Shown here in pieces: positions 33,655 through 59,335 of a DNA stretch of 64,000 nucleotides; the first letter of the stretch is position 1, and each line of letters starts with the position of its first letter. The translations under genes were made by a program, and so were the position numbers. Where the stretch lies: NCBI GenBank assembly GCA_963727525.1, contig CAVSGO010000006.1, positions 146,828-210,827 of the forward strand. Reading direction: 5' to 3'. This stretch comes from an uncultured bacterium (GTDB lineage: Bacteria > Krumholzibacteriota > Krumholzibacteriia > LZORAL124-64-63). The notes under the pieces were generated by a model that saw only the letters and a program-made list of their open reading frames with translations, had not been told where the DNA came from and searched no databases.

Positions 33655-34902
33655 CTAGTCCTGGCAACGCACCTCGACCCGGCGGTTCATGGCGCGGCCG
33701 CACTCGTCGTCGTTCGACGCGACCGGTCGCGCCTCGCCTGCGCCGGCGGCTGAGAGTCTGCCGGCTTCTACGCCACGTGCGACGAGGTCGGCCACGACCG
33801 CGATCGCCCGGCGCTCGGAGAGGGTCTGGTTGTAGGCCGCCTCGCCCTCACTGGACGTGTGCCCCTCGATGAGCACCGTCGCCGACGCTTCGGCCTGCAG
33901 CCCGCGCGCGAGCTCGGCCAGGACCGGCGCCGACTCGGGCCGGATGACGTCGGAATCGAAGTCGAAGGTGATGCCCTGGATCACCGAGCCGCACCCGAGC
34001 CGCGGCGGTGCCGGATCCGCACAGTCGCTCACCGGATCGGTGTCCGTGGGCGCGCCGGTGTAGAGCGCGAAAGGTGCGCCGTTGGTCGACCGCACGCCGC
34101 GAATGGTCCCGTCATCGGTGACGCCCAGGATGAACAGGCTGACCACGCCGTCGCTGCGGCCGGTGCCGGTGGCGCGTAGGATGCTCCCGGTGACGGTGCC
34201 CTCGAGACGCGACCCGTCGTCGTAGCAGCCGGCGACCAGGGCCCCTTCCTGCACCAGCCGCAGGTGCACGCCGCGATCGCGCCACATGCCCGTGAATGCG
34301 GTGGAGAGCGCGGGTGTCTCCTGCGTGCCATTGCCGATGATCTCGCTGAACTCGAGGAACATCTGATCGCGGTCCATCGCGATGCCGCCTTGCAGGCGTA
34401 CGCGCACCCATTGCACCGGCATCGTCGCCTGCAGGGCGAGGTCGGTCACCTGGCCGCGCCGCGCATGCGTGGTGAGCGTGCCGCGGGCAAGCAGGGTCCA
34501 CGGCCCGTCCGGGCCCGCGGCCGAACCGTGGACCTCGACCTTCCGCGTGAAGGTCTGCGACGGGCTCGGCGTCTCGAGCACCTCGGGCACGGCGAGCCGG
34601 TCGAAGGTGGTGGGCGCCGGCAACGCGAAGACGAACCCGGTCACCGTGGTCGAGTCGGCCCGGTTCACCAGCGGGAAGTCGCCGGGATAACCGTCGACGA
34701 TCTGCAGAGCGTGGGTGAGATTCGTACCCTTGCCCGCTCCCGAGCTTTCCACGCGCAATGGTACGGCACCGCGGGCGAGCGTGAGGTAGTCGATCCGCGA
34801 TGGCGGATCCTCGCGGTCACGGATGGTGGGGGAGTCTGCCTGGGCCAGGCCGAACGAGGTGGCAGACATGGCGAGGGCGAGGGTGACGGCGATGAGGCGC
34901 AT
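33655..34902 (-). CDS. Secreted OmpA-family protein with discoidin-like N-terminal domain
   Basis: Signal peptide; ITFDFDSD, IEGHTS, YNQTLSERRA, GAGEARPVASN, NRRVE. Confidence 0.88.
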   Translation of the reverse strand: MRLIAVTLALAMSATSFGLAQADSPTIRDREDPPSRIDYLTLARGAVPLRVESSGAGKGTNLTHALQIVDGYPGDFPLVNRADSTTVTGFVFALPAPTTFDRLAVPEVLETPSPSQTFTRKVEVHGSAAGPDGPWTLLARGTLTTHARRGQVTDLALQATMPVQWVRVRLQGGIAMDRDQMFLEFSEIIGNGTQETPALSTAFTGMWRDRGVHLRLVQEGALVAGCYDDGSRLEGTVTGSILRATGTGRSDGVVSLFILGVTDDGTIRGVRSTNGAPFALYTGAPTDTDPVSDCADPAPPRLGCGSVIQGITFDFDSDVIRPESAPVLAELARGLQAEASATVLIEGHTSSEGEAAYNQTLSERRAIAVVADLVARGVEAGRLSAAGAGEARPVASNDDECGRAMNRRVEVRCQD

Positions 34903-34988
34903 CCCATCTCCGATCGAGGGGGTGGCGATACGTCGAGATGAGAGGGCAAAATATCATACCAGATTGATCGCGGAAAGCGAATCCCGTC

Positions 34989-35645
34989 CTACGTCGCCGC
35001 GGCGGCATCCTGCTCGGAGAAGTAGCTGGCGAACTGGTCGGCCAGCGCGAGGCGGGCGGCCGCCAGGGCCGTCGCGGCCGTTTCGAATTCGCTTCGACGC
35101 AGCGACTCCGCGAGGCCATGCCAGGTCTCGAGCCAGCCACCGGCGTCCCAGCCGCGATCAACGGCCGCGCTGATGTAGCGCAAAGTGAGCCGGTTCTGGC
35201 GCAGGGCGAGGGTGCGCAGGGTGAGGTTGCGGCAGCCGTCGAGCGTGATGCGCGTGAGCAGGTAGAACGTTTCCACGAGACCATCGCGGTCGGTGCGGCC
35301 GAGGCGGGCGCGGGAGAGCAGATTCTGCAGTTCCATCACCGCGCGGCCGTCGAGCGGGTCGCGATCGCGCAGTGCGGCGGGCTCGATGACGGCGAGCACG
35401 CGGCAGAGTTCGTTGATCTCGCGCGCGGTGAGCGGCGGTACCTGGAAACCTCGGCCCATGAACGACAGCAACACGCCCTCGGCCTGCAGGCCGAGCATGG
35501 CCTCGCGCAGGGGGGTGCGGCTGATACCCAGGTCCTGCGACACGCGCGACTCATTCAGGTGCATGCCCGCCGGCAGGCGACCGTCGACGATGCGCGCGAG
35601 GATCTCGGCGCCGACGTCCGTTCGCAGGGGTTTGCGCTCAAACAT
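34989..35645 (-). CDS. GntR family transcriptional regulator (FCD-type)
   Basis: LPAGMHLNESRVSQDLGISRTPLREAM..L..EG. Confidence 0.9.
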   Translation of the reverse strand: MFERKPLRTDVGAEILARIVDGRLPAGMHLNESRVSQDLGISRTPLREAMLGLQAEGVLLSFMGRGFQVPPLTAREINELCRVLAVIEPAALRDRDPLDGRAVMELQNLLSRARLGRTDRDGLVETFYLLTRITLDGCRNLTLRTLALRQNRLTLRYISAAVDRGWDAGGWLETWHGLAESLRRSEFETAATALAAARLALADQFASYFSEQDAAAAT

Positions 35646-35678
35646 GCCACGTCCTTGCCGGGGCGTCGGCGACGCGCC

Positions 35679-35987
35679 TCAGACCCGCACGACCGAGTTC
35701 TCGGCACCCTCGAAGCCACTGGGGCAGTACCGATCAGCACCGTCGTCGTTCTGCCAGGTCTTGCCGTCGAGGAGGTAGCGGTACTGGTACTCGCGTCCCA
35801 CCTCGAGGTCGAGCGTCACCTTGAATTCGCCGCTCTTCAGCTTCTCCAGCGGTGTGGCGCGGGGGTTCCAGTCGTTGAACTCGCCGACGAGGCTGACCTT
35901 CCCGGCCCCGAGGGCCAGATCCTTGGGCAGCCGGAACGTCACCTTGCACACCGGCTTGCTCTTGAGAGGTTTCTTGATGACGCTCAT
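35679..35987 (-). CDS. Isoamylase early-set (CBM48-like) domain protein
   Basis: MSVIKKPLKSKPVCKVTF, LVGEFNDW, YQYRYLLDGKTWQND; GGAGG RBS. Confidence 0.9.
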   Translation of the reverse strand: MSVIKKPLKSKPVCKVTFRLPKDLALGAGKVSLVGEFNDWNPRATPLEKLKSGEFKVTLDLEVGREYQYRYLLDGKTWQNDDGADRYCPSGFEGAENSVVRV

Positions 35988-36074
35988 GGACGAATCCTCC
36001 GTATAAAGACCCTCGATCTCATCTTTGGGCGCAAGATAGAGCCGATCCGGTCCAGGCGTCAAATCACGTCTCCG

Positions 36075-37391
36075 TCAATTCGCCGTGCCCAGTTCCAGCA
36101 TGTACCCCGCCACCGCCTTGAGCTTCTCGTCGCCGAGCTTGAAGGCGGGCATCTGCGGAAAGCCCGCCCGCTTCTTGCCGGGGCTGCTCGCCCAGGTCAC
36201 GATGCCGTCGGGATTGTCGGCATAGATCTTCGCAATCTCGCGCAGCGACGGGCCCACGAGCACACGGTCGGTCGTATGGCATGCCGCGCAGGTGCCCTGG
36301 AAGATCTTCTGGCCCAGGGGCACCTTCACGAGCGTCTGGCCCGTGGCTTCGCGCCACTGCGCGGCCGCCACTTGCCAGCCCAAGTCGCGCGTGTGGGCCG
36401 CGACGAGACGACGATGCTCGTTCAGCGCGTTCTCCCGGTAGACGTGGCGGCCGTAGCCCATGGCGAAGGCCGTGAGCGTGAGGAGTGTGAAGACGAGCAC
36501 GCCGCGCGGCAGGGCTCGCGCGGCAGGCCGCGTCACCTCCCGCCACATCGTCACCGTGGCCACGATGGCCAGCGTCACGCCCACGCTGATGATCCCGATG
36601 AGGTACCAGCTCACGCCCTGGGCCGGCAGCGTCAACAACAACAACGGCCCGAACACCACCTGCATTGCCGTGGCGCCCAGGGTGATGCCATAGAAGAGGC
36701 GGCGCAGCGCGCGGCGATCGAGCTCCTGGAAGCGCGTCTCCACGTGGTAGCTGTCGCGCAGGAAGAACACGAGCAGAAAGAGTCCGGCGATCGCCACGCT
36801 CGCCGTGAGGAAGTGGAAGTATCGTGGCCACACGTTGGGCAGGGCCAGCGCGGAGACGAAGCCGTGGACCTCGGACCAGCGGCCAGGGAACAGCATCAGG
36901 TTGATGTTGGCCAGGAAGATGAGCGGGATGGCCAGGAACATCGCCGCGCCGGCCATGCCTATCGCGATGTGCAGGCCCTTGGCGTCGGCGAGCCTGTCCC
37001 ATGTGTACTTGTGGATGTACGTCACCAGGAAGGCCACCGTCACGAGCGGGATGATCGCGATCCACGCCGCCCCGGTGAGCGCGTTGGCCGAATAGAAGTA
37101 CACCGTGTACACCAGGTTGAGGGCCAGTAGCGGCCCCACGCCCAGCACCACGGCCAGGCTCTTGTTCACGGTCACGGTGCCGGCGATCTCCCTCGCGAGC
37201 ACGTCGAAATCACGACGCCGGCGGCCGAGCAGCTCGAACACCACCGTGAGCAGCGAGCCGCCCACCATGAGGTTCACGAAGAGGATGTGCCACAGGAAGA
37301 GCAGCACGAGCAGCGTGTTGACGACCACGGAGTCCGCCGGCAGCGGCAGCGGAATGTCGCGCGGCAGGGGCCAGTTGGCGATCGAGTCCAT
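36075..37391 (-). CDS. CydA-like membrane protein fused to C-terminal cytochrome c (subunit B)
   Basis: WHILFVNLMVGG and PRYFHFLTAS (His positions comparable to CydA heme ligands); CAACH, VGPSL, QMPAF. Confidence 0.75.
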   Translation of the reverse strand: MDSIANWPLPRDIPLPLPADSVVVNTLLVLLFLWHILFVNLMVGGSLLTVVFELLGRRRRDFDVLAREIAGTVTVNKSLAVVLGVGPLLALNLVYTVYFYSANALTGAAWIAIIPLVTVAFLVTYIHKYTWDRLADAKGLHIAIGMAGAAMFLAIPLIFLANINLMLFPGRWSEVHGFVSALALPNVWPRYFHFLTASVAIAGLFLLVFFLRDSYHVETRFQELDRRALRRLFYGITLGATAMQVVFGPLLLLTLPAQGVSWYLIGIISVGVTLAIVATVTMWREVTRPAARALPRGVLVFTLLTLTAFAMGYGRHVYRENALNEHRRLVAAHTRDLGWQVAAAQWREATGQTLVKVPLGQKIFQGTCAACHTTDRVLVGPSLREIAKIYADNPDGIVTWASSPGKKRAGFPQMPAFKLGDEKLKAVAGYMLELGTAN

Positions 37392-37409
37392 CGTGCGGTT
37401 CTCCTGTGA

Positions 37410-38786
37410 TCAGCGTCCGAAGCCGGCCGTCTGCACCCCGTCCAGGGGAGCGGGGTCGGCACGCAGCGAGATGATGTAGTCGGCGAGCGCGGACTTCTCC
37501 TCCGCGGTGCCCGGCACCGGCGGCATGAAGGGGCGCGCGTTCTGGATGCCATCGAGATAGGTGACCAGGGCGGCGTGGTCCCAGCCTTGCCAGCCGTACA
37601 TCGCGCCGAACTTCTGCACGATACTGTTCACGCCGTGAGTGGTGTGGCAGCGGCTGCACGCGAGGCGGAACATCTCGCGGCCGGCCATGAGTGTATTGTC
37701 GTCGGTGACGTCGTGCACCACGGCGTAGGAGGCGTGGGCCAGCAGGCCGTCTTCCGCGTAGAGCGGGTAGTCCTGGGCGCGCAGCCCGTTGCTGTACATG
37801 TAGGCCTGGACGACCTCGGGCTTGCGGATGAACTCGCGCACGCGCTCGAAGTAGCTGAGCTGCCACACCGCGAAAAGCACCGGCACGATCATCGCCACAG
37901 CAGGCAGGCGGCGTGGCGCCAGCAAACCCCACACGGCGACCAGCACGACCACGCCCACCGAGACCGCGATGACGACGCGTAGCGGATCGTAGAGCTGCTG
38001 GAAGTTCAACGTCGTAAGGGCCACGGGGAGGTTGGCGTGCATGCGTTCGGGGATGACCTTCCAGTACGACCACGCGCCCACCAGCCACGCCGGGCTGAAG
38101 GCCAGGGCCCAACCGCTGATCGCGCGCACGGCGCGACCGCGGAACTCACTGCCGCGCTCGGTGAAGAGCACCGTCAGGAAGAGGGCGAACATGGCGGCCG
38201 TCACCAGAGCCAGTGGTGTGCGGAAGAAGAGCTGCGGTAGGTAGACGGGGTTGAGCGCCGCGGTCCAGAAGCCTGGATTCACCGTCCACACGCCGGTGTC
38301 CATCTGGAAGCTGAGGATGGCCACGATCACGGCCATGGTCAGCCAGGAGGCGACGCTCAGCGCCACGCCCAGCCCGAGGTGCGCCTTCTTGTGCGCCTTC
38401 GCCCACATCGTCTTCCACGACAGCATGTAGATCAGGATGAGGGCCACCTCGGTCACGAAGACCGTCCACTCGAAGAACCACGCCCAGAAAAAGACGCGGA
38501 TCAGGGAGCCTATGGCGTTGGGGTTCACGAGGCTGGTCGACAGCCAGATGCCCACGCCCGTGAGCGCGCCCAGGCTGGTGGTGACGATGAACGCCACGAA
38601 CAGGATGCGATACGCCAGGCGGTCCCACTGCTCGTCGCGAGTGCGGATGCCCAGCCACTCCAGATACGTCACCAGCGGCGCCAGCCCCACGGCCAGCATG
38701 TGGTTGATGATCACGTGGAGGGAGGCGATCACCGCGATCAGCAGGCGGTTGCCGAAGAAGTCGAGGTGAAAGACCGGGAAATCCAT
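37410..38786 (-). CDS. Cytochrome bd subunit I (CydA)-like protein fused to cytochrome c (subunit A)
   Basis: LHVIINH, GALTGVGIW, WFFEWTVFVTE, REFIRKP (GRQPW-like); CSRCH, FMPP; GAGGA then ATG38786. Confidence 0.8.
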   Translation of the reverse strand: MDFPVFHLDFFGNRLLIAVIASLHVIINHMLAVGLAPLVTYLEWLGIRTRDEQWDRLAYRILFVAFIVTTSLGALTGVGIWLSTSLVNPNAIGSLIRVFFWAWFFEWTVFVTEVALILIYMLSWKTMWAKAHKKAHLGLGVALSVASWLTMAVIVAILSFQMDTGVWTVNPGFWTAALNPVYLPQLFFRTPLALVTAAMFALFLTVLFTERGSEFRGRAVRAISGWALAFSPAWLVGAWSYWKVIPERMHANLPVALTTLNFQQLYDPLRVVIAVSVGVVVLVAVWGLLAPRRLPAVAMIVPVLFAVWQLSYFERVREFIRKPEVVQAYMYSNGLRAQDYPLYAEDGLLAHASYAVVHDVTDDNTLMAGREMFRLACSRCHTTHGVNSIVQKFGAMYGWQGWDHAALVTYLDGIQNARPFMPPVPGTAEEKSALADYIISLRADPAPLDGVQTAGFGR

Positions 38787-39090
38787 GACGGGCATCCTCT
38801 TCGGTTGCATGCGCGGGCCAGGTGCGCGCGGCGGGGGCCTTCACGCCGCGTTCCTCGCATATCCGCGTGGCCCACGCCGGAAACCCCACCGGAATCGTGT
38901 GAGTTAAGTCTTTCTCGAAGAAGAAGTTACGCGACGCGGCATGGTAATGGCAAGGCGGGACACACGCCAGCACGCGATAGCCTGGAACACACCGGGGTGG
39001 CGTCCGTAAGGACCGGGTTCGATCTTGGGTACGACGCGTAGCGCCGACCGTCCCGGCCGGCGCGCCTTCCCACGATGGAGGTCGTTTTCG

Positions 39091-40278
39091 ATGCGCAAGT
39101 TCTCCCTCACGTTCCTCGTCGGCCTGGTCGCGGTCCTGGCACTCGCGGCCGGAACGGCGCACGCCCTGCCGGCGGCGCCGATCATCGCCCAGAGCTGGGA
39201 CGAGGCGGTGGCGTTGTCTCAGCAGCACGGTTCGCCGATCGTCATCGACTTCTATACCGACTGGTGACCGAGCTGCAAGGTCTTCGCCCGTGAGGTGGAG
39301 GAGAATCAGCAGCTTCGCGGCTATCTGGCCGGGATCGTGCTCTTCAAGAACAACTGCGAGAAGGGTGCGGGCATCGATGTCGCCAAGAAATACGAAGTGC
39401 ACGTATACCCGACCTTCGCCATGGTCGACGCCAGCGGCGAGGTGACCGATCGCTGGGCCGGCTACCAGGGCGCCGACGGCTTCATCGCCACCGTGGACGC
39501 GGCCCAGGCCGACCCCCGGACGATCAAGGAGAAGGTGGCGGCGTTCGACGAGGAACCGACGGTGGCGCTGTCGCGCTCGCTGGGACAGTACAGCGAGGCG
39601 GTGGGTGCGAACACCGACGCCATCAAGTACTACCGCAAGGCGATGGTCCTTGACTCAACGCTCGCCAAGGAGATGCGCAGCCAGGTCTTCATGGCCGCGT
39701 TCTATGGGTTGCGTTCGGGTGAGGTGACGGGCGATCAGCTCATGGCCGTGGGCCACGAGATCATGGATGCGCCCGGGAGCGATGCGAACGACTATCTCAT
39801 GGTCGCCAGTATCGCCAAGCGCGTGGCGTCGGCCAACGACTACGTGCCGATCCTGCAGAAGGCCCTGACCGCCACGGCGAATTCCGACGATCCGGAGATG
39901 GCGGAGTACCGGCAGGATCTCCTCGTCGACGAGGCTCTCCTGATCAAGAACGACAAGGACGAGGCCCTGCGTCTCAAGCGGGATACGCTCACCGACACGT
40001 GGCGCAACGATCCCGATGAGATCAACAGCTTCGCCTGGTGGTGCTACGAGAACGACCTCAACCTGACCGAGGCCTACGACCTCGCCATGCGCGGCGCCGA
40101 TCTGGCCGCCGACGACGGCACCCGGGCCAACATCCTCGACACGGCGGCCTACATCGCCTTCAAGAAGGGCGACCAGGCCAAGGCTATCGAGCTGGAGACA
40201 CGCGCCGTGAAGTTGGCTCCCGATCGCCAGGGTCTGCAGCGCACGCTGGAGAAGTTCAAGAGCGGGGAGGCCGGCTGA
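39091..40278 (+). CDS. Secreted thioredoxin-like/TPR protein, probable selenoprotein (TGA at codon 59)
   Basis: ORF-track pieces 39025..39267 and 39295..40278 are in the same frame. Read-through gives IVIDFYTDW-(TGA)-PSCK, then VHVYPTFAMVD (cis-Pro loop). GGAGG, signal peptide and TPR-like C-terminus (NSFAW, NILDTAA) present. Confidence 0.85.
39282..39295 (+). promoter_or_regulatory. Candidate bacterial SECIS hairpin
   Basis: CTTC-GCCCGT-GAGG begins 15 nt after the TGA, with a G first in the loop. The stem is short and was not folded computationally. Confidence 0.35.
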
Positions 40279-40303
40279 GACTTCCCGAGACGCCCGTATC
40301 GAT

Positions 40304-40345
40304 GCAAGCGGCCGTGGATCTCTGGATCCGCGGCCGCTTGCTTTT
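40304..40345 (+). terminator. Intrinsic terminator
   Basis: GCAAGCGGCCGTGGATC...GATCCGCGGCCGCTTGC hairpin followed by TTTT. Confidence 0.75.
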
Positions 40346-40383
40346 CGTCGCGGTCTTGCGGGACGTCGCCGTTTCGTGTACCG

Positions 40384-40399
40384 TACCAACCGGTAGGTA
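40384..40399. promoter_or_regulatory. Candidate TetR/NemR-like operator
   Basis: TACC-A-ACCGGT-A-GGTA near-perfect palindrome touching the tetR start codon. Confidence 0.6.
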
Positions 40400-41049
40400 T
40401 GGAAATGCAGGTACAGCGAACACAACACGAATCCAAGCGCAAGCTCCTCGACGCCGCCCTCCGCGTGATCCGTACGAAGGGCTACGAGGCGGCGACGGTG
40501 GAGGATATCTGCCGGGAGGCGGGGCTGACGAAGGGCAGCTTCTTTCACCATTTCAAGGGGAAGGAAGACCTGGCCGTGGCGGCGGCGGAGTACTTCGCCA
40601 CCATGGCCGACGGGCTCTTCGCCGACGCGCCGTACCGGCATCTCGAGGATCCGGTCGAGAGGGTGCTCGGGTATGTCGATTTCCGCCGCGCGATCCTGCG
40701 CGGTGCGTTGCCCGAGTTCACGTGTCTGCTGGGGACGATGGTCCAGGAGACGTACGCGACCCACCCGGCCATCCGCGAGGCCTGCGACACGCACATCAGC
40801 GCGCACGCGGCCGACGTCGCCCGCGATCTCGCGGCGGCACAGGCGCGCGTGCCTTCTTCCCGGGCGAGCTGGAACCCGGAGGATCTCGGCCTCTTCACGC
40901 AGGCCGTGATCCAGGGCGCCTTCGTGCTCGCCAAGGCCCGGGGCGGCCCCGAGGTCGCCGACGCGTGCCTCGCGCACCTGCGGCGGTATCTCGAGCTGCT
41001 CCTCGATCGCCCATTCCCAGCCGCGAAGGACGACGACCATGACGGATAG
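40399..41049 (+). CDS. TetR family regulator (NemR-like)
   Basis: LLDAALRVIRTKGYEAATVEDICREAGLTKGSFFHHFKGKEDL; CLLGT. Confidence 0.93.
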   Translation: MEMQVQRTQHESKRKLLDAALRVIRTKGYEAATVEDICREAGLTKGSFFHHFKGKEDLAVAAAEYFATMADGLFADAPYRHLEDPVERVLGYVDFRRAILRGALPEFTCLLGTMVQETYATHPAIREACDTHISAHAADVARDLAAAQARVPSSRASWNPEDLGLFTQAVIQGAFVLAKARGGPEVADACLAHLRRYLELLLDRPFPAAKDDDHDG

Positions 41050-41815
41050 ACAGCACCCCTTTTGCTGGTACGAGCTGACCACGCCGGACGCCACGGCGGC
41101 CGCGCGATTCTACGGCGACGTGTTCGGGTGGACGGCGCGCGATGCCGGCAACCCCGCGATGCCATACACCCTGCTCGCCTCCGGAGGTCGCGACATCGGC
41201 GGCATCTATCAGTTCCCGGACGATCCGAGCTGCGCCGGCATGAAGCCGGGCTGGCTCGGCTACATCGCCGGCGATGTCGAGACCGACGTACCGCGCGTGC
41301 AAGCGGCGGGCGGCACGGTGCACAAGGCGTGCACGGACATTCCCGGCGTAGGCCGCTTCGCGATCGTCGGCGATCCGCACGGCGCGGCGTTCGTGATCTT
41401 CACGCCTGACCCGATGCCGGGCGACATGCCCGAACCCGTGCCGGCCACCACGCCGGGCCACGTGGGCTGGCACGAGTTGCACGCCGGCAACGGCCTCGAG
41501 GCCTGGGAGTTCTACTCGGGGCTCTTCGGCTGGACGGGACGGGACGGGCTCGATATGGGACCAGCCGGCGTCTACCGGATCTTCGCGATCGACGGCGTGG
41601 ACCGGGGCGGCGTGATGACGAAGATGCCGGAGATGCCCGCGCCGAGCTGGCTCTACTACGTCACTGTGGCGGGCATCGACGCGGCGATCGCTCGCGTGAG
41701 GGCTGCCGGCGGCACGATCATCAACGGACCGCACCAGGTTCCCGACGGCCCATGGATCGCCCAGGGTGCGGATCCTCTGGGTGGGATGTTCGCGATGATG
41801 TCGGAAGCCCGCTGA
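41039..41815 (+). CDS. Two-domain VOC/glyoxalase family protein
   Basis: FCWYELTTPD, GRFAIVGDPHGA, VGWHELHA, WLYYVTV, DPLGGMFA. Confidence 0.92.
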   Translation: MTDRQHPFCWYELTTPDATAAARFYGDVFGWTARDAGNPAMPYTLLASGGRDIGGIYQFPDDPSCAGMKPGWLGYIAGDVETDVPRVQAAGGTVHKACTDIPGVGRFAIVGDPHGAAFVIFTPDPMPGDMPEPVPATTPGHVGWHELHAGNGLEAWEFYSGLFGWTGRDGLDMGPAGVYRIFAIDGVDRGGVMTKMPEMPAPSWLYYVTVAGIDAAIARVRAAGGTIINGPHQVPDGPWIAQGADPLGGMFAMMSEAR

Positions 41816-42833
41816 ACGCGCGGTGCCCCTCGCGGCGGGGCGCCCCCGTGGCGCCCCGCCGCCGATAAGTGCCCGGAGCGACGCCGAGGTAGCGCTTGAA
41901 GACCTTGCTGAAGCTCGCCTCGGCGCGATAGCCGACGCGGTCGGCGACCTGGGCGAGCGTGAGGTGTCCCTCGCGTAGGTGGTTCGCCGCCACCTGCATC
42001 CGCCACCGCGTGAGGTACTGCAAGGGCGACTCGCCCACGAGCCCGCGGAATCGCGATGCAAACGCCGAACGCGACATGCCCACCCGAGCGGCGAGCGACT
42101 GCACCGTCCAGGCATCGTCGGCGTGCGCATGCATCAAGCCGAGCGCCTCGCCGATCAACGGGTCGCGCAGACCGGCCAGCCAGCTCGGGCCAGTGTACGC
42201 CAGTTCCTCGATGGTGGTCTGCAGCACCTGGATGAACAGGGCCTCGGTGAGCCGATCGAAGAGGGCGCCGCGTCCCGGACGCCCCGCGATGGTCTCCTGG
42301 GCGATGAGGTCGAGCGACGATTCCAGCCACGATCGCGCCCGGCCACCCTCGCCCCGGATCGATAGCACCGGCGGCAACACCGACAACAGGGGATGGGCGG
42401 AGCCGTGGTCGAAGCTGAAAAAACCGCAGATCAGGTCGGCCTGCGCCCCGTCGCCGCCGATGCGCAGCGGCGCATGGACCGGGTCCCGCTCGCCCTCGGG
42501 CACATGGGCGAGCAGCTCCTGCAGAGGCACGGCCGGTGTGGCCGGTCCGTCGGCGACCACGTGGGCGTCGCCATGGGGGAGTACCACGATGTCCCCGGCC
42601 GACAGGGCCATCGCGTCGAACCCGCCCGCCACCGACGGGCGCAACCAGCAACTCCCCGCGCGGATGACGTGGAACTGTGCCGCGTCGCTGGCCGGCACCT
42701 CCAGGCCCCAGGGTGCGCGCAGCTCCGAGCGGAAGTACAGGCTGCCGCCCAGATGCACCGATTCGAGGATGCTGGTCAGGGCATCGTGGCTTGCCTGTGG
42801 ACGATCGGACATGAATTCTGCATGAATCGTCAT
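41721..42833 (-). CDS. AraC family regulator with cupin_6 domain
   Basis: DALTSILESVHL, FHVIRAGSCWL, GDIVVLPHGDAH, WTVQSLAARVGMSRSAFA, VGYRAEASFSKVFK; GGAG then ATG42833. Confidence 0.92.
   Translation of the reverse strand: MTIHAEFMSDRPQASHDALTSILESVHLGGSLYFRSELRAPWGLEVPASDAAQFHVIRAGSCWLRPSVAGGFDAMALSAGDIVVLPHGDAHVVADGPATPAVPLQELLAHVPEGERDPVHAPLRIGGDGAQADLICGFFSFDHGSAHPLLSVLPPVLSIRGEGGRARSWLESSLDLIAQETIAGRPGRGALFDRLTEALFIQVLQTTIEELAYTGPSWLAGLRDPLIGEALGLMHAHADDAWTVQSLAARVGMSRSAFASRFRGLVGESPLQYLTRWRMQVAANHLREGHLTLAQVADRVGYRAEASFSKVFKRYLGVAPGTYRRRGATGAPRREGHRAFSGLPTSSRTSHPEDPHPGRSMGRREPGAVR
41832..41862. terminator. Perfect 13-bp hairpin between convergent genes
   Basis: GCGGCGGGGCGCC-cccgt-GGCGCCCCGCCGC; no U-tract. 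Confidence 0.55.
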
Positions 42834-42908
42834 AGCTGCTCCAGTTCCTGGTCCTACCATAACGGCATGATCGCTGACCAACCAGCCCACATCGGAAAAG
42901 AGGAAACC

Positions 42909-43814
42909 ATGAGCATAGTCGTCACCACCCCCACGGGGAACATCGGATCGGTTGTGACCAGCACGTTGCTGGATCGAGGCGCCAAGCCCGTGCTGATCGC
43001 GCGCGATCCTTCCAAGCTCGAGGACGCCGCCCGCCGCGGCGCGACCGTGAAGCAGGGCAGCCACGCCGACGCCGGGTTCCTGGTGGAGGCCACGCAGGGT
43101 GCGGTCGCTCTGTTCGTCGTCACCCCGCCCGACATGCAGGTGCAGGACATCAACGGTCACTACCGGCGCTTCGCCGAGGCCGCGGCGCGGGCCGCGCACG
43201 AGAACGGGATCGGGCATGTGGTCCACCTGTCCAGCGTGGGCGCCGAGCTCGCGAGCGGCAATGGCCCGGTGGCCGGTCTGCACCTGGCCGAGACCATTCT
43301 CGACGGCGCGGGGATTCCGAACCTGACGCACCTGCGGCCGGTCTACTTCATGGAGAACACGCTTGGTCAGATTCCCGGCCTGATCCAGACGGGCAACCTG
43401 TTCACCACGTTCCCGGCCGGTATGCGATTCCCGATGATCGCCACCCGCGACATCGGTGTACGCGCCGCCTCCCTGCTGCACGACCGCGTCTGGTCCGGTC
43501 ACCGGATCCAGGAGCTGCACGGCGCCGAGGAGACGGGCTACGAGGAGGTCGCCAGCATTCTGAGCGACGTGCTGGGACGCGACATCAATCATGTCACCGT
43601 GTCCGGCGAGCAGTTCGTGCAGGCGCTCACCGGCATGGGCATGAGCAAGGTCATGGCCGACGCGCTGGCCGAGCTGAGCGGGGCCCTCGCGTCCGGCAAG
43701 ATCAAGCCCCAGGAGCCGCGCAATGCCGCGAACACCACGCCGACGACCTACCGCAGCTTTGCCGCCACCGTGTTCAAGCCGGCGTACGAGGCGGCGCAGG
43801 TGGCGGCGCGGTAG
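42909..43814 (+). CDS. NmrA-like NAD(P)H-binding protein
   Basis: IVVTTPTGNIGS, VVHLSSVGA, LRPVYFMEN, MIATRDIG. Confidence 0.9.
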   Translation: MSIVVTTPTGNIGSVVTSTLLDRGAKPVLIARDPSKLEDAARRGATVKQGSHADAGFLVEATQGAVALFVVTPPDMQVQDINGHYRRFAEAAARAAHENGIGHVVHLSSVGAELASGNGPVAGLHLAETILDGAGIPNLTHLRPVYFMENTLGQIPGLIQTGNLFTTFPAGMRFPMIATRDIGVRAASLLHDRVWSGHRIQELHGAEETGYEEVASILSDVLGRDINHVTVSGEQFVQALTGMGMSKVMADALAELSGALASGKIKPQEPRNAANTTPTTYRSFAATVFKPAYEAAQVAAR

Positions 43815-43904
43815 CCGCGCGGTCTATCCTGATGACAATCGTCGTCTGTCTGGTATGGTCATCGCCGGGACGCGCGCCGGCGATGACCGGCCAGAAAGGA
43901 CACC

Positions 43905-45287
43905 ATGCACATCACCTTCCACGGTGCCGCGGGGGGCGTCACCGGTTCGAAGCACCTGCTCGAGACCGGGGCGCACAGCCTGCTTGTCGACTGTGGTCTC
44001 TTCCAGGGCCCCAAGGACCTGCGCCAGCTCAACTGGAAACCGCCTCGCTTCGATGTGGCCGGCCTCGATGCGATCCTCCTGACTCACGCGCACCTCGATC
44101 ACACCGGCTGGTTGCCGCGCCTGCTGCAATATGGGTTGCGCGCCCCGGTGTACTGCACCGAGGCCACCGCCGAACTGGCCGAGCTGATCTTGCTGGACAG
44201 CGCCCACCTGCAGGAGGAAGACGCGGCCTGGGCGAACAAGAAGAAGTACTCCAAGCACCAACCGGCCTTGCCGCTGTACACCACCACCGACGCCCTCGCC
44301 GCGCTCAAGCGGCTGCGTCCCGTGCGCTATGAGCAATGGCACGAGGTGGTGCCCGGCGTGCGGGTACGCTGGCATCTGGCGGGGCACATCCTGGGTGCGT
44401 CGTTCCTGGAGCTGGCGATCAAGGAGAACGGGCGCGAGCGCACGGTCGTGTTCAGCGGTGATCTCGGGCGGTACGACGAACCCTTGCACCACGATCCGGC
44501 GCCGCGGCCCGATTGCGACGTGCTCGTGATCGAGTCGACGTACGGTGATCGGTTGCACGACCACGAACCGGTGGAAGACCAGATCGGTCCCGCATTCAAG
44601 GAGACGATCCGCCGGCGCGGCGTGGTGCTGATCCCGGCCTTCGCGGTGGGCCGTGTGCAACTCGTCACGCTGATCCTGCGCGAGCTGATGAAGGACGGCG
44701 ACCTGCCCGAGGTGCCGATCCATATCGATTCGCCCATGGCGATCGACGCCACGGCGGCGTACTCACGCCATCTGCTCGACCACACCCTCGACGAGGACCT
44801 CACCGAGGAGGGGCGTAAACTCCTCTTCCCGCACGACGTGCTCGTGAGCCGCACGGTGCACGACTCGAAGCGGATCAACGCGCTCGATGGCCCCATGGTC
44901 ATCGTATCGAGCAGCGGCATGATGACGGGTGGGCGCATCCTGCACCACCTGACGCGGCGCGTGGGCAAGTACGAGAACCTGATCCTGCTGTCGGGTTACC
45001 AGGCAGTGGGCACGCGTGGCCGGGCGCTGCAGGACGGGGCAAAGACACTGAGGATCCATGGCGACGAGTGGCCCATCGTCTGCAAGGTGCTGACCATCCA
45101 CGGCCTTTCCGCCCATGGCGACTGGCAGGAGATGATGCGCTGGGCCGGCTCGGCCTCGACCCATCCCCGGACGACCTTCGTGGTGCACGGCGAGCCGTCG
45201 CAGGCCGAGAAGTTCGCGGTGCGCATGCGGGCACAGACCGGCGGCGACGTGCACGTGCCCACGCTCGGACAGAGCTTCGAGGTCTGA
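43905..45287 (+). CDS. MBL-fold beta-CASP ribonuclease (YSH1-like)
   Basis: VTGSKHLL, THAHLDH, AGHILG, FSGDLG, ESTYGDR, FAVGR, LSAHGD, VVHGE. Confidence 0.93.
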   Translation: MHITFHGAAGGVTGSKHLLETGAHSLLVDCGLFQGPKDLRQLNWKPPRFDVAGLDAILLTHAHLDHTGWLPRLLQYGLRAPVYCTEATAELAELILLDSAHLQEEDAAWANKKKYSKHQPALPLYTTTDALAALKRLRPVRYEQWHEVVPGVRVRWHLAGHILGASFLELAIKENGRERTVVFSGDLGRYDEPLHHDPAPRPDCDVLVIESTYGDRLHDHEPVEDQIGPAFKETIRRRGVVLIPAFAVGRVQLVTLILRELMKDGDLPEVPIHIDSPMAIDATAAYSRHLLDHTLDEDLTEEGRKLLFPHDVLVSRTVHDSKRINALDGPMVIVSSSGMMTGGRILHHLTRRVGKYENLILLSGYQAVGTRGRALQDGAKTLRIHGDEWPIVCKVLTIHGLSAHGDWQEMMRWAGSASTHPRTTFVVHGEPSQAEKFAVRMRAQTGGDVHVPTLGQSFEV

Positions 45288-45303
45288 ACCGCAAGGCGGC
45301 GCC

Positions 45304-47088
45304 ATGCGATCGACCGCCACGCGCATCGTCCGGTTCCTGCGGCACTGGCGGCTGCGGCCACGGGTGCTGAGCCTGCTGGCCATCCGCATCTGGTTGCTCG
45401 AGAAGTTCCGGATCTCCGATACGCAGCGGGTGCTGTTCTGGGCCGGCGTGGTGGGCGTGCTCGGCGGCCTGGCCACGATCGCTCTGCGCGACGCCATGGA
45501 ACTGCTGCACCACCTGCTCACCCGGCAACCGGGCGGGCTGGTGGAGTCGTTCGCGCGCATGCCCCAGTGGCGGCGCCTGGTCGTGCCCATCGTCGGTGGC
45601 GCGCTCGCGGGAGGCGCGATCCACTTCGGCCGCTGGCTGGGCGAGAGCCGCAACACCACCGACTACATGGAGGCTGTGGCTCTCGGCAAAGGGTCGCTCT
45701 CGTTCCGCCGCAGTGTGGTGAAGATCGTCTCCGCCGCATTCTCCGTGGCCTCGGGCGCGTCGATCGGCCGTGAGGGCCCGCTGGTGCAGCTCTCGGCACT
45801 GGTGGCGTCGCTGGTGGGCAAGTTCCGCAACTGGTCGGCACCACGGCGCCGCGTGATCGTGGCGTGCGGTGCCGCGGCCGGCATCGCGTCGGCCTACAAT
45901 GCGCCCATCGCGGGGGCGCTCTTCGTGTCGGAGATCATGCTGCGCTCGATCTCCATGGAGACCCTCGGCCCCCTCGTGTTCTCGTCGGTGATCGCGACGC
46001 AGGTGGTACGCCACTACCGCGGCGAAGGCCCGCTCTACGCCATCCCGGCGTTCAGCCTGGCCACCGGCTGGGAACTGGTGCTCTACCTCGCCCTCGGCGT
46101 GGTGTGCGGCCTGCTGGCACCTTTCTACCTGCGTTTTCTGCGTGCGAGCGAGTCGCTCTTCGGCCGCGTCCGTGCACCCGCGTTCGTGCGCCTGGCGCTG
46201 GGCGGTATCGTGGTGGGCGTGATCGCCACGCATTACCCGGAGGTGTGCGGTAACGGCTACAGCGTGGTGGTGTCGATTCTCAACGACGCGTGGGTGTGGC
46301 AAACGCTGCTCGTGGTCCTGGTGCTCAAGGTGGTGGCCACCGGCGCCACGTTCGGTTCCGGTGCCGTGGGCGGCGTGTTCACGCCCACGCTGTTCACTGG
46401 CGCGGGCATCGGTTACCTCTTCGCGGCGACGTGCGGGGCGTTCTGGCCCGGGCCGCCGCTGGGGCCGGGCGCGTACGCGCTCGCCGGCATGGGTATGTTC
46501 ATCGCGGCCACCACGCGGGCGCCGCTGATGGCGATCATCATCATCTTCGAGATGACGCTCGATTACCACGTGATCGTGCCGCTGATGATGGGCTGCGTGG
46601 TCGCGTATTACACGGCCAGCGCGATAGAGAGCGAGTCGCTCTACAGCCACGCCCTGGCGCGCAAGGCGGGCGTCGACGTGCAGTACGAGCTGGCCACGCT
46701 TCTGGTGTGCGACCTCATGAAGACCGACCGCATCTTCGTGCGCCTCGGTTCGCGCTTCGCCGAGATCGCGCGCCTGTTCATCACTAACAACATCAAGTAC
46801 ATGTACGTGCTCGACGACGAAGACACCTTCCGCGGCGTGGTGCGCCTGCAGGACACGAAGGCCTACCTCAGCACGCCTGGCCTGGCCGACGTCGTCATCG
46901 CTCTCGACCTGATGCAGGAAGCATTCCCGCGCCTGGCGCCCGACAGCACTCTGAGCGAGGCCCTCGCCACCTTCGCCGCCCACGACGGCGAGAGGTTGCC
47001 CGTGCTCGATGCGGATTCGCAGCGCCTGCTCGGCAGCATCTCGAAGGCCGACGTGCTCTTCGCCCTGGCGCACAGGGCATCGGCGTAG
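45304..47088 (+). CDS. clcB: ClcB-like chloride channel with CBS domains
   Basis: DYMEAV, SIGREGP, YNAPIAGALFVSE, GGVFTPTLF; two CBS domains. Confidence 0.88.
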   Translation: MRSTATRIVRFLRHWRLRPRVLSLLAIRIWLLEKFRISDTQRVLFWAGVVGVLGGLATIALRDAMELLHHLLTRQPGGLVESFARMPQWRRLVVPIVGGALAGGAIHFGRWLGESRNTTDYMEAVALGKGSLSFRRSVVKIVSAAFSVASGASIGREGPLVQLSALVASLVGKFRNWSAPRRRVIVACGAAAGIASAYNAPIAGALFVSEIMLRSISMETLGPLVFSSVIATQVVRHYRGEGPLYAIPAFSLATGWELVLYLALGVVCGLLAPFYLRFLRASESLFGRVRAPAFVRLALGGIVVGVIATHYPEVCGNGYSVVVSILNDAWVWQTLLVVLVLKVVATGATFGSGAVGGVFTPTLFTGAGIGYLFAATCGAFWPGPPLGPGAYALAGMGMFIAATTRAPLMAIIIIFEMTLDYHVIVPLMMGCVVAYYTASAIESESLYSHALARKAGVDVQYELATLLVCDLMKTDRIFVRLGSRFAEIARLFITNNIKYMYVLDDEDTFRGVVRLQDTKAYLSTPGLADVVIALDLMQEAFPRLAPDSTLSEALATFAAHDGERLPVLDADSQRLLGSISKADVLFALAHRASA

Positions 47089-47169: not shown

Positions 47170-49734
47170 ATGTCTTCGCGCTTTGTCGCCATTTGCCTCG
47201 CTGTCACCCTTGGTTTACCCATTGTTTCCCTGGCGGCCGACGACGCGGTTGTCGCGCTCGACGCGCTCGTCATCGGGCCGTTCCCGGCGGCGCCGGCTCT
47301 GGTGGCCACGCCCCACGTGCCGGGCGATCAGGAACTCGTGCCCGAGATCGATCCCACGGGGTGGATGCCGGAGGAAGGCGACAAGGTGCCGGCGGCGCCG
47401 GGCCACGAGCTGACGTGGCGCAAGGTGGGCGCAGCTGATGGTGGCTTCGCGCTTCCCGATTCGGGCGTGTACTGGTTAGCGGCACGGCTGCAGAGCGATC
47501 GCTGGTCGGAGGTGACGCTGAAGGCCGACGGTGGTTGCGCCATCTACGCCGACGGTACCAAGGTCGCGGCCAACGTGCCGGGAGAACCGGGCGATGACGT
47601 GGAGGGCGACGTCGGTGCCGGCACCGGGGCGCGCTTCGTGTTCGTGCGGGCGTCGGCTGGCAAGGATGGCGGCCACGTGACCCTGAGTGCCACCGGCGAC
47701 GCGACGCTGAGCTGGACGCTCGACGCGCAGCTCGGCCTCAGCGGGATCGACCGGGCGCGCCGGATTGCGATGATCGGCAACCTGGCCGTGTCGCCCAAGG
47801 GAGCGCTCGTGGCCAGGCGGCTGTCGCGTCGGAAGCCGACCGGCGAGGGCTGGCAGCGCGACGTGTCGGTCTTCGCCAGCGACGGCGGCCTGGTGGCCAG
47901 CGATCTCGGCGGAGCGGGTGCGCGGCCCGAGGCCTTCTCGCCCGACGGGCGCCAGCTCCTGTTGCGCCGCAGCGACGGCGGCAACACCGATCTCGTGCTC
48001 TGGACGGCGCCGCTCGGACCGGTGCGCACCGTCGTCGAGGACGAACCCGGCCTGGGTATCGTGCGTTTCTCACCGGACGGGCACTGGCTGCTTATCGCGT
48101 CGACGCGCGGTTTCGACGCGAAGTCCGTCGCCGAGGATCAGGCGCATCGCTGGGACACGCTGGGTCAACGTCTCACTGACTGGGACCCGCTCACGCATCT
48201 GCACCTCGTGAACGTGGCCACAGGCGCGCGCCGGGTGCTCACCCAGCCCGGCGACTGGACGCTCGACGGCGCGGCGTGGCTGCCCGACGGCAAGGCGATC
48301 ATCTACGGGCGCACGCAGCCGCAACCGGAGCGGCCGTGGTTCACGTCGGAGATTCACCGCATCGACCTCGCCACCGGCGACGACACCGTCGTCGCCACCT
48401 TCACCGGTGGCTGGGAGGTGCGGCCGCAGGCGTTCGCGCCGCATCCCGACGGCCGGCGCGTGGCCTTCCTCGGTCCGCCCGAGGCGGTGGGCGATGGGCA
48501 CACCGAGCACAACGTCTACGACAAGCAGGTGTGGATGCTCGACCTTGCGACCGGCAAGACCGAGCGCGCCACGTACGGGTTGCGTGATACCTTCGCCGGT
48601 GGCGGCGGTCTGCCCGCGTGGGAGCCGCGGGGCCGCTGGCTCGTGGTCCCGGCCACGGCCGGTTCACGGGACGTGCTCGTCCAGCTCGAACCCGACGGCG
48701 CGCATTGGAAAGCAACAGAGGTGGCAACCGAGGGCGTGACCGGCGAGGGATGGGCCCTCAGCCCCGACGCCGTGGCCGTGGCGTACACCGCGAGCGGCCT
48801 CGCGCAACCGCCGTCCCTCTGCCTGCAGACGCTCGGCGGCCGTGCGCGGGTGATCGAGGCGCCCAATGCCGCCCTGACGCAACGCTGGCGCCTGGCCGCG
48901 ACGTCCGACGCGTCGTTCACCGGGCCAGGCGGCGAGACCATCGAGGCCTGGTGGTACCGCCCGAGCACGGCAGCGGCCGGCGTCTTCGACCAGCCGGCGC
49001 AGGGGAACGCCGGCAGCGTGCCGCTCATCGTCTATTACTACGGCGGTGCTTCACCCACCATCCGCGGTTTCAATCCCACGCACCAGTTCTGGGCGGCCAA
49101 CGGCTACGCGGTGCTCGTGATCAACCCGCGCGGCGCGTTCGGCTACGGAGACGCATTCGCCGACGCGCACGCCGGCGATTGGGGTACCGAGGCCGGCGCC
49201 GACATCGTGGCCGGTACCGAGGCTCTGCTCGCGCGCTTCCCGCAACTCGACCGCAAGGCCGTGGGCTGCTACGGCGGCAGCTACGGCGGCTTCATGACGA
49301 TGTACCTGGTGAGCCACAGCGACCTCTTCGCTGCAGCCGTCGCCATGTACGGCATCGCCGACCTCGTCACCTACTGGGGGCAGGGCGCCTGGGGCATCAC
49401 CTACGGTGACATGGCGCTCGGCGGCCGCACGCCGTGGGGCGATGCCTCGTACTTCACGCAGCACTCGCCGGTGTACGCGGCCGACCGCATCCACACGCCG
49501 CTGCTGATGCTGCACGGCGCGAGCGATACGAACGTGACTCCGGGCAACTCCGAGGAGATGTTCGCCGCTCTGAAGGTGCTCGGCCGCGACGTGGACATGG
49601 TGACGTTCCCCGGCGAGAACCATGGCATCGCCGGTACGTGGGCCGACTATACGGGCCATCGCACGATGATGCTCGAGTTCTTCGACCGCTGGCTGAAGCA
49701 GCAGCCGCAGGCGTGGGAACATCGCTGGAAGTGA
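47170..49734 (+). CDS. S9 prolyl oligopeptidase family, secreted
   Basis: Signal peptide; propeller repeats; YGGSYGG (Ser), HGASDTNV (Asp), GENHGI (His). Confidence 0.93.
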   Translation: MSSRFVAICLAVTLGLPIVSLAADDAVVALDALVIGPFPAAPALVATPHVPGDQELVPEIDPTGWMPEEGDKVPAAPGHELTWRKVGAADGGFALPDSGVYWLAARLQSDRWSEVTLKADGGCAIYADGTKVAANVPGEPGDDVEGDVGAGTGARFVFVRASAGKDGGHVTLSATGDATLSWTLDAQLGLSGIDRARRIAMIGNLAVSPKGALVARRLSRRKPTGEGWQRDVSVFASDGGLVASDLGGAGARPEAFSPDGRQLLLRRSDGGNTDLVLWTAPLGPVRTVVEDEPGLGIVRFSPDGHWLLIASTRGFDAKSVAEDQAHRWDTLGQRLTDWDPLTHLHLVNVATGARRVLTQPGDWTLDGAAWLPDGKAIIYGRTQPQPERPWFTSEIHRIDLATGDDTVVATFTGGWEVRPQAFAPHPDGRRVAFLGPPEAVGDGHTEHNVYDKQVWMLDLATGKTERATYGLRDTFAGGGGLPAWEPRGRWLVVPATAGSRDVLVQLEPDGAHWKATEVATEGVTGEGWALSPDAVAVAYTASGLAQPPSLCLQTLGGRARVIEAPNAALTQRWRLAATSDASFTGPGGETIEAWWYRPSTAAAGVFDQPAQGNAGSVPLIVYYYGGASPTIRGFNPTHQFWAANGYAVLVINPRGAFGYGDAFADAHAGDWGTEAGADIVAGTEALLARFPQLDRKAVGCYGGSYGGFMTMYLVSHSDLFAAAVAMYGIADLVTYWGQGAWGITYGDMALGGRTPWGDASYFTQHSPVYAADRIHTPLLMLHGASDTNVTPGNSEEMFAALKVLGRDVDMVTFPGENHGIAGTWADYTGHRTMMLEFFDRWLKQQPQAWEHRWK

Positions 49735-56945: not shown

Positions 56946-56956
56946 AAGGTCGAACC

Positions 56957-59253: not shown

Positions 59254-59285
59254 CAGGGGGCCCGCCGTTGGCGCCCCCTGATTTT
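59254..59285 (+). terminator. Probable terminator after qNor
   Basis: CAGGGGGC...GCCCCCTG hairpin followed by ATTTT. Confidence 0.6.
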
Positions 59286-59335
59286 GGGCTCCAGATCCAT
59301 CGAACCTTCTGGCATACTCGTGCCAGGAGGTTCCG

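Follow-up and report, generated by a model that had tools for sequence, protein, structure and literature searches.

An in-frame UGA codon predicted to encode selenocysteine in a putative exported thioredoxin-TPR protein of Krumholzibacteriota

Background

In an uncultured bacterium assigned to the Krumholzibacteriota (assembly GCA_963727525.1, contig CAVSGO010000006.1), the gene at 39091-40278 of the stretch analysed here is interrupted by an in-frame TGA. This stretch, called the window below, is 64,000 nucleotides (nt) long, and coordinates refer to it unless a locus is named. Does the TGA end a short gene, does it mark a mutated or misread codon, or is it translated as selenocysteine? A preliminary description, made from the letters of the sequence, had proposed the last of these: an exported UxxC thioredoxin fused to repeats resembling tetratricopeptide repeats (TPR). 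Comparison with related sequences indicates that selenocysteine is almost certainly inserted at the internal TGA, so that the gene encodes a single thioredoxin-TPR protein of 395 residues. Those of the proposed checks that were carried out all support this reading. The explanation as a whole, in which UGA-59 encodes selenocysteine and the product is an exported thioredoxin-TPR oxidoreductase, is given a probability of about 0.88.

The interrupted gene

The listing of open reading frames (ORFs) in the window contains an 80-residue piece ending at 39267 and a 327-residue piece starting from GTG 39295, and a public gene call for an identical contig likewise divides the gene, into 58 and 327 residues. 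A translation in one frame, MRKF...IDFYTDW(TGA)PSCKVFAREV...GEAG(TGA), passes through both pieces, and its sole internal stop is the TGA at 39265-39267. The listing and the translation thus agree with the preliminary description, which had seen one gene split at this codon with its halves in one frame. The features of the gene are as follows.

39091..40278, + strand: full-length predicted selenoprotein ORF, 395 codons including UGA-59, with its own stop TGA at 40276-40278, from the single-frame translation
39265..39267, + strand: in-frame UGA, the predicted selenocysteine codon (U59) and attacking residue of U-P-S-C, from comparison of homologues
39274..39276, + strand: TGC, the resolving cysteine C62 of UxxC; TGC in 29/30 sequences and TGT in 1/30
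39077..39081, + strand: Shine-Dalgarno sequence GGAGG, 9 nt ahead of the ATG, read from the sequence
40304..40345, + strand: strong intrinsic terminator found by a terminator scan, in which TTTT comes after a 17-bp stem containing 12 G-C pairs

By its sequence the gene is a self-contained monocistronic unit, with its own Shine-Dalgarno sequence and its own terminator. When U is read as C, the Pfam Thioredoxin model PF00085 spans residues 33-135 (E 6e-12). Because this match runs across the interrupted codon, the TGA is placed at the N-terminal nucleophilic cysteine of W-C-x-x-C (here W-U-P-S-C), where the preliminary description had also put it. The base call, for which a check had been proposed, is the same in a second assembly, made by Logan from run ERR11594398, which agrees with window 34555-44124 at every base (100% over 9,570 nt), the TGA included. 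TGA is also the commonest ordinary stop in the window, ending 20/37 well-supported ORFs, this gene among them; the genetic code is therefore not reassigned.

Conservation of the TGA codon

A protein search with the full-length sequence returned 61 relatives. Nearly all of them are 290-340 residues long and start a few residues past the CxxC position; full length was found only in P0002 (WCSSC) and P0058 (WCGPC). The expectation that standard annotation misses the full protein is borne out, as gene callers truncate members of this family across databases. At the DNA level, a scan of one genome per species gave 34 loci, almost all from metagenome-assembled genomes (MAGs) of Krumholzibacteriota (Krumholzibacteriia), some being labelled "uncultured Fibrobacteraceae" or just "bacterium". 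The site is covered in 33 loci, whose proteins are 34-59% identical to that of the window, and the homologous codon is TGA in 33/33; the motifs are FTEW(TGA)GGC, YTDW(TGA)PSC, YTDW(TGA)PGC, YTDY(TGA)PSC, YATW(TGA)GPC and GADW(TGA)GSC. The selenocysteine forms found are confined to Krumholzibacteriota-type MAGs. A search for homologues with TGA versus TGC or TGT had been suggested in the preliminary description, which named the lack of any homologue with TGA at this codon as grounds for rejection; that is clearly not the case, and TGC forms also exist.

The sequence upstream of the TGA behaves as part of the same protein. No stop interrupts its frame in any locus, and 31/32 loci have an ATG 49-90 codons before the TGA; a signal-like hydrophobic N-terminus directly follows that ATG in 26 loci and follows an internal methionine in the other five. 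Conserved upstream residues are written with mixed synonymous codons, D53 by GAC in 17 and GAT in 12 sequences, with A39 and L40 mixed as well. Conserved residues before and after the TGA alike vary in synonymous codon, which indicates selection on the protein. The 27-nt gap between the two called pieces is also conserved, in-frame coding sequence. Together, the TGA in 33/33 loci, the open upstream frame and selection at the protein level exclude sequencing error and recent nonsense mutation, and likewise a reading as two genes.

These data bear directly on two of the alternatives. That a TGC or TGT was mutated or misread as TGA, leaving a nonsense pseudogene or an assembly artefact, is exceedingly improbable when the TGA persists down to 34% identity, the frame is under selection on both sides, an identical second assembly exists and the downstream hairpin described below is conserved. 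TGC to TGA is nevertheless a single-base change, and one-off cases do occur in these MAGs. One is at L004:7200-7202 (-), in a homologue of the neighbouring membrane cytochrome c, where a TGA stands at the second cysteine of a heme-binding CxxCH motif (EGTCAA(TGA)HARD); TGC is the codon in the window (gene at 36075-37409, -), L005, L006, L007 and L026. A point mutation or an assembly error is the probable cause, a CxxUH selenocytochrome being a less probable reading. As a single TGA against TGC in five syntenic loci, it exemplifies a point error or mutation and contrasts with the 33/33 TGA of the thioredoxin gene.

The other alternative is a pair of genes, an exported peptide of 58 residues and a TPR protein of 327 residues starting from GTG 39295. 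Public gene calls give exactly this split, and a GTG or ATG is usually present a few codons past the TGA. Both the position and the codon of that downstream start vary among homologues, however, and the split would cut the thioredoxin fold mid-way, as judged from the Pfam match over residues 33-135 and from a structure model described below. As a protein by itself, the downstream piece would hold the remainder of an exported domain but no signal peptide; the gap between the pieces is conserved as coding sequence of the same frame, and full-length cysteine forms are single proteins. Two separate genes are accordingly very improbable.

A hairpin following the TGA

In bacteria, the selenocysteine insertion sequence (SECIS) lies within the coding sequence as a stem-loop that directly follows the UGA and carries a G in its small apical loop (PMC9312934, PMC1088965). 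The hairpin found here answers to this published description, standing right after the UGA with a small G-containing loop.

39281..39301, + strand: SECIS-like hairpin in the RNAalifold consensus, with 5' arm 39281-39288, loop CGUGA 39289-39293 and 3' arm 39294-39301

The window and 32 loci (33 sequences) were aligned over the 63 nt that come after the TGA. Without any hint, RNAalifold gave a single hairpin of 8 bp, pairing columns 17-24 with 30-37 around a 5-nt loop. The 8-bp stem starts 13 nt past the UGA and its invariant core (UUCGCC) at 15 nt. The preliminary description had placed a small hairpin with a G-initial loop at 15 nt; the hairpin is present and 15 nt is the distance to the invariant core, but the G is the second base of CGUGA, not the first of the loop. 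The six core pairs are formed in 33/33 sequences, and 94.3% of all cells are paired, compared with 38-57% when the partner arm is slid as a control. The covariation score is 0.259, against at most 0.116 in the slid controls: pair 22-32 is G-C in 18 sequences, G-U in 14 and A-U in 1, while the seventh pair (18-36) swaps between G-C (18) and C-G (6). The loop reads CGUGA in 18 sequences, CGUGC in 14 and CGGGA in 1. In six diverse representatives the hairpin was the minimum free energy (MFE) fold every time (6/6), at -9.2 to -12.7 kcal/mol. An outer stem in the MFE fold of the window itself (39270-39276 with 39309-39315) was considered and rejected as not conserved, being paired in 44.6% of cells across the family, like the slid controls.

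Codon usage inside the hairpin is frozen. F65 is TTC in 30/30 sequences, A66 is GCC in 29/29 and R67 is CGT in 29/30; by comparison, codon entropy is 0.56-1.57 at other conserved alanine columns, and CGT is in the minority at other conserved arginine columns (2/24 and 3/27). Support for constraint at the RNA level, as read from the alignment, comes mostly from conservation and from this freezing of synonymous sites, which are stronger than the covariation. The significance of the hairpin comes from the comparative data, the window alone being weak evidence.

Domain architecture

The preliminary description had assigned the product a signal peptide, a thioredoxin domain and TPR-like repeats. 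This architecture is confirmed by Pfam matches, a predicted structure, Foldseek comparisons and the N-termini of the loci, and its parts are as follows.

39091..39165, + strand: predicted Sec-type signal peptide MRKFSLTFLVGLVAVLALAAGTAHA, with basic N-terminus, hydrophobic core and AxA motif; putative cleavage AHA-L, after AHA
39187..39495, + strand: thioredoxin-fold domain, residues 33-135, DsbD-gamma / Thioredoxin_7-like, from Pfam, Protein Data Bank (PDB) sequence matches and Foldseek
39409-39411, + strand: cis-proline P107 (YPTF), invariant in the family alignment
39523..40266, + strand: predicted C-terminal all-helical TPR superhelix, about residues 145-392, from the AlphaFold2 model of P0002 and Foldseek

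The core of the signal peptide reaches a maximum 12-residue hydropathy of 2.97; its cleavage would be expected from the motif. Besides PF00085, the thioredoxin domain matches PF13098 (Thioredoxin_2, 4e-11) and PF13899 (Thioredoxin_7, 1.6e-10) above cutoff, and positions 464-572 of the NCBIfam DsbD model. In the PDB sequence search its matches are 2kuc (E 7e-13) and cDsbD (E 6e-9 to 6e-7). The TPR domain holds the invariant motifs FAWWC (with C318) and RANILDTAAE in the family alignment; Pfam TPR models remain below their cutoffs there (TPR_2, 21.8 bits vs 27), and no NCBIfam model passes, or comes near, its cutoff for the full protein.

The structure was modelled with AlphaFold2 on the natural cysteine homologue P0002, which is 55% identical and of the same length. 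The model has a predicted local distance difference test score (pLDDT) of 90.8 and a predicted template modelling score (pTM) of 0.82. Residues 1-29, the signal peptide, are disordered in it and are followed by a thioredoxin fold and then by 14 helices over residues 146-392. The strand at 51-56 leads to the active site, and helix 61-72 follows; a CxxC-type motif at the start of helix 1 and a conserved cis-proline loop are the marks of a thioredoxin-fold oxidoreductase. Foldseek against the PDB placed the thioredoxin domain at template modelling scores (TMt) of 0.63-0.74 to cDsbD and 2kuc, and of 0.6-0.8 to the wider set of DsbD-gamma, 2kuc, DsbH and thioredoxins. The C-terminal domain matched 8-repeat consensus TPR proteins (9qhc, 8chy; TMt 0.52-0.54, probability 1.00) as well as OGT, BBSome and APC TPR subunits, and forms the superhelix of tandem helices by which TPR domains are recognised.

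Some family members carry additional C-terminal parts. In a subset of the selenocysteine forms, namely L006 and L008 (ORF of 527-529 codons past the TGA), P0020, P0028, P0039-P0041 and P0045-P0047, a third domain of ~190 residues is present that matches Pfam PF16036, giving a Trx(U)-TPR-PF16036 protein. PF16036 is a chalcone isomerase-like family. The N-truncated P0071 (405 residues) and P0102 (403 residues) match the profile in two stretches and have two C-terminal TPR modules (FASWC... and VAWWCFEH...), an internal duplication of the TPR domain.

Cysteine homologues

Searching 1.84 billion representatives with a profile gave 321 members of the family at E <= 1e-30. Among the best 150 of these 321, about 90 are N-truncated and begin where the profile begins; about 59 are long forms, whose N-termini extend 50-90 residues further. 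A CxxC stands at the aligned site, behind a signal peptide, in 58 of the 60 long forms that were inspected (WCGPC in 36), and the remaining 2 have SxxC or AxxC. The DNA of the cysteine forms P0002 and P0058, examined at loci L035 and L036, has TGC. A selenocysteine clade accompanied by more distant cysteine homologues of identical architecture is the classic selenoprotein pattern.

Two comparisons link the hairpin to the UGA. The F-A-R peptide after the active site is found in 32/33 selenocysteine forms and in 6/58 cysteine forms. The distant cysteine form L036 has neither this peptide nor a hairpin (MFE -0.4 kcal/mol), while the close form L035 has kept a hairpin with CGT changed to CGG, which fits a recent switch from selenocysteine to cysteine. 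Two other cysteine forms, P0186 and P0169, keep the K-x-F-A-R-E/A-V peptide typical of selenocysteine forms (WCAPCKLFAREV and FCGPCKAFARAV), and from their sequences they may be recent conversions to cysteine with a relic SECIS.

Identity of the inserted residue

It follows from the comparison of homologues that the UGA is decoded and that the hairpin matters, but not which amino acid is inserted. Recoding to another residue was therefore considered: cysteine, by a tRNA with UCA anticodon using SelB and a SECIS-like element, or tryptophan, by near-cognate read-through stimulated by the hairpin. Natural recoding of UGA to cysteine has been reported. The Sec machinery is also unseen in the sequence available, that is, the window and the related loci. 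Recoding of this kind is nevertheless improbable. Tryptophan here would inactivate the enzyme; if cysteine were inserted, there would be little reason to keep UGA and a hairpin over TGC in 33/33 loci. The site is moreover the nucleophilic cysteine of CxxC, the classic position of selenocysteine, and selenoproteins with UxxC on a thioredoxin fold form the commonest class in the prokaryotic inventory of PMC13188914.

The machinery itself was sought in several ways. ARAGORN and Rfam found no tRNA-Sec in the 64-kb window, and none of the 34 loci yielded a tRNA. About 30 ORFs of the window were scanned with Pfam, which gave no SelA, SelB or SelD, and six-frame translations of 524 kb contained no SelA (GDKLLGGPQ-type), SelD (G[C/U]GCK) or EF-Tu/SelB GTPase (GHVDHGKT) motif. 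Two ORFs whose size suggested selA and selB (43887-45287 and 45136-47088, about 467 and 651 codons) proved by Pfam to encode a beta-CASP metallo-beta-lactamase and a CLC channel. A 93-nt tRNA-Ala(cgc) called by ARAGORN at 48400-48492 was considered as a tRNA-Sec and discarded as a false positive, since it lies inside the ORF of an 854-residue prolyl oligopeptidase (S9) and has no Rfam support.

Several observations weigh against the proposed selenoprotein and its function. Genes for selA, selB, selD and tRNA-Sec remain unseen in the 64-kb window and about 460 kb of related loci; this sequence is a small fraction of each genome, so that the absence neither supports nor refutes selenocysteine. 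In the accessible text of the literature searched, selenocysteine decoding in Krumholzibacteriota is not mentioned. The covariation of the hairpin is modest: three of its eight pairs never vary, and shuffles reach the observed covariation score in 3/500 cases and the observed count of pairs changed on both sides in 43/500. The hairpin of the window is not unusually stable (z = -1.5 over 27 nt, and z = -0.2 for the fold of a wider 79-nt segment), and no relevant Rfam match was found for it at gathering or permissive thresholds. Finally, the gene neighbourhood is conserved only within clades and differs between them, so it offers no consistent functional clue.

Genomic neighbourhood

In the window, two adjacent genes at 36075-38810 (-) are divergent from the selenoprotein gene. 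Both encode membrane proteins of about 445-465 residues; in each, a C-terminal cytochrome c domain follows a large N-terminal membrane part that is uncharacterised. Next to this pair are a CBM48-like protein and a GntR regulator (35679-36074 and 34989-35678), and the whole block is syntenic in 7-8 loci, in the window's clade only. In 16 loci of the distant selenocysteine clade (L009-L028), a protein of ~580-620 residues is encoded immediately upstream on the same strand, about 0.3-2.1 kb before the TGA. To the eye it looks like an exported amidohydrolase (HCHLYGLG, HAIGD), and it may be co-transcribed with the selenocysteine gene. Farther away in the window, the ORF at 56606-59245 (+) encodes 879 residues with NorB cytochrome c-like and COX1 domains, by its domains probably a nitric oxide reductase-type heme-copper oxidase, and is followed by a sigma factor of the extracytoplasmic function (ECF) type at 59282-59923.

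The adjoining pair raises the question of whether the same selenoprotein serves cytochrome c maturation, its thioredoxin reducing apocytochrome CxxCH as CcmG or ResA do and its TPR domain acting as a chaperone in the manner of CcmI or NrfG. TPR apocytochrome chaperones exist, and the gene divergently adjoins the two conserved cytochrome c membrane proteins throughout the window's clade (7 loci). This synteny is absent in the distant selenocysteine clade, however, where the upstream neighbour is the candidate amidohydrolase. The thioredoxin domain is also nearer to DsbD-gamma than to the TlpA/ResA class, and the NCBIfam ResA and StoA models reach 18-19 bits against cutoffs of 170-210. A role in cytochrome c maturation is thus unlikely, and it is a weaker alternative to the chaperedoxin-like function outlined next.

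Proposed mechanism and significance

In the proposed mechanism, the hairpin 13 nt past the UGA would recruit SelB with GTP and Sec-tRNA(Sec) as the ribosome reaches UGA-59. Selenocysteine would be inserted there, and translation would run on as far as the true stop, another UGA, which has no such hairpin. The signal peptide would then send the protein through the Sec translocon and be cleaved. The mature product would be a periplasmic thiol-disulfide oxidoreductase with a U59/C62 selenenylsulfide couple on a DsbD-gamma-like fold, whose TPR superhelix most likely holds a client protein or peptide. In envelope proteins it would most likely reduce or isomerise disulfides or sulfenylated cysteines, as a selenium-dependent periplasmic analogue, in architecture, of the cytoplasmic chaperedoxin CnoX/YbbN. 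The decoding part of this mechanism is well supported by the aligned sequences; we infer dependence on SelB, export, redox direction and the identity of the substrate.

In databases, almost all entries of the selenocysteine clade are "TPR protein" or "hypothetical protein" of 290-340 residues that have lost the signal peptide and the catalytic half of the thioredoxin. Reading UGA as selenocysteine restores a redox enzyme to the annotation. If this is true, about 90 database representatives would be N-terminally truncated mis-annotations without a catalytic domain, and the family would be the first evidence of selenocysteine decoding in the candidate phylum Krumholzibacteriota. It points to selenocysteine use in this uncultured phylum of the FCB group, none having been reported in the accessible text of the sources searched. 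From sequence and model, the protein would be a natural fusion, located in the cell envelope, of a selenocysteine redox centre and a TPR scaffold that binds substrate. The matched selenocysteine and cysteine forms provide a handle on what selenium adds to a periplasmic oxidoreductase, and the F-A-R-E/A motif is a compact case of a SECIS imposing a peptide that decays after selenocysteine is replaced by cysteine. The principles of selenocysteine decoding itself are unchanged by the finding.

Comparison with known systems

Two solved proteins, the CnoX/YbbN of E. coli (3qou) and of Salmonella (3qdn), are the only ones that match both domains, since their single chain likewise has a thioredoxin fold at the N-terminus and a TPR domain after it (Foldseek E 1.8e-6, probability 1.00). 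This likeness is of architecture only, at 16-17% identity, TM scores of 0.22-0.31, a root-mean-square deviation of about 20 A and a different arrangement of the domains, and it is a point against the functional part of the explanation. CnoX is cytoplasmic and 282-285 residues long, whereas the protein described here has a predicted signal peptide and a UxxC centre. E. coli CnoX is not known to have a canonical CxxC. Among the 60 matches listed from the PDB sequence search (E <= 0.01), CnoX is absent. Given the predicted signal peptide, this absence and the low identity, the protein may work like CnoX and is not filed as a member of that family.

Taken singly, the thioredoxin domain is best matched by DsbD-gamma, DsbH and the Bacteroides protein 2kuc, which are periplasmic and have a CxxC active site and a cis-proline loop. 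These are cysteine proteins, stand-alone or attached to the DsbD membrane domain, and none has a TPR domain or selenocysteine. Models of the CcmG/ResA/TlpA kind were not matched (NCBIfam ResA 18.3 bits vs a cutoff of 170; StoA 19.4 vs 210).

The hairpin resembles the canonical bacterial SECIS (bSECISearch consensus, fdhF type) in its position and its small G-containing loop. It is shorter, with 6 invariant core pairs and 8 at most, and has no conserved lower stem; its loop CGUGM is almost invariant. The G-U in this loop presumably resembles the bases contacted by SelB in fdhF.

In the main text of a 2026 inventory of 119 prokaryotic selenoprotein families, the UxxC thioredoxin fold is the commonest class, and the entries include Trx (PF00085), a thiol:disulfide interchange protein (PF13098) and a Trx7/PDZ fusion (PMC13188914). 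The protein described here is like the UxxC selenoproteins presented there in having selenocysteine at the N-terminal cysteine of CxxC, the same Pfam domains, a SECIS inside the ORF just past the UGA, and cysteine homologues. It is unlike those listed there in that a signal peptide and a thioredoxin are fused to a TPR superhelix of ~250 residues. The Trx7/PDZ selenoprotein of the same text (NF041199) likewise joins a thioredoxin-like selenocysteine domain to a module that binds proteins or peptides, in that case CxxU with PDZ and here UxxC with TPR, and NF041199 has no match here. Neither a TPR-fused form nor Krumholzibacteriota appears in the main text of PMC13188914 or in the accessible text of the deep-Sep and BSepDB papers. 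With respect to these sources, the family is an unlisted one of a well-known bacterial selenoprotein kind, systematically mis-annotated and from an understudied phylum. It is moderately probable that it represents an exported "seleno-chaperedoxin" family absent from those inventories, whose close relatives in Krumholzibacteriota all use selenocysteine with a minimal, nearly invariant SECIS of 6-8 bp and a CGUGM loop.

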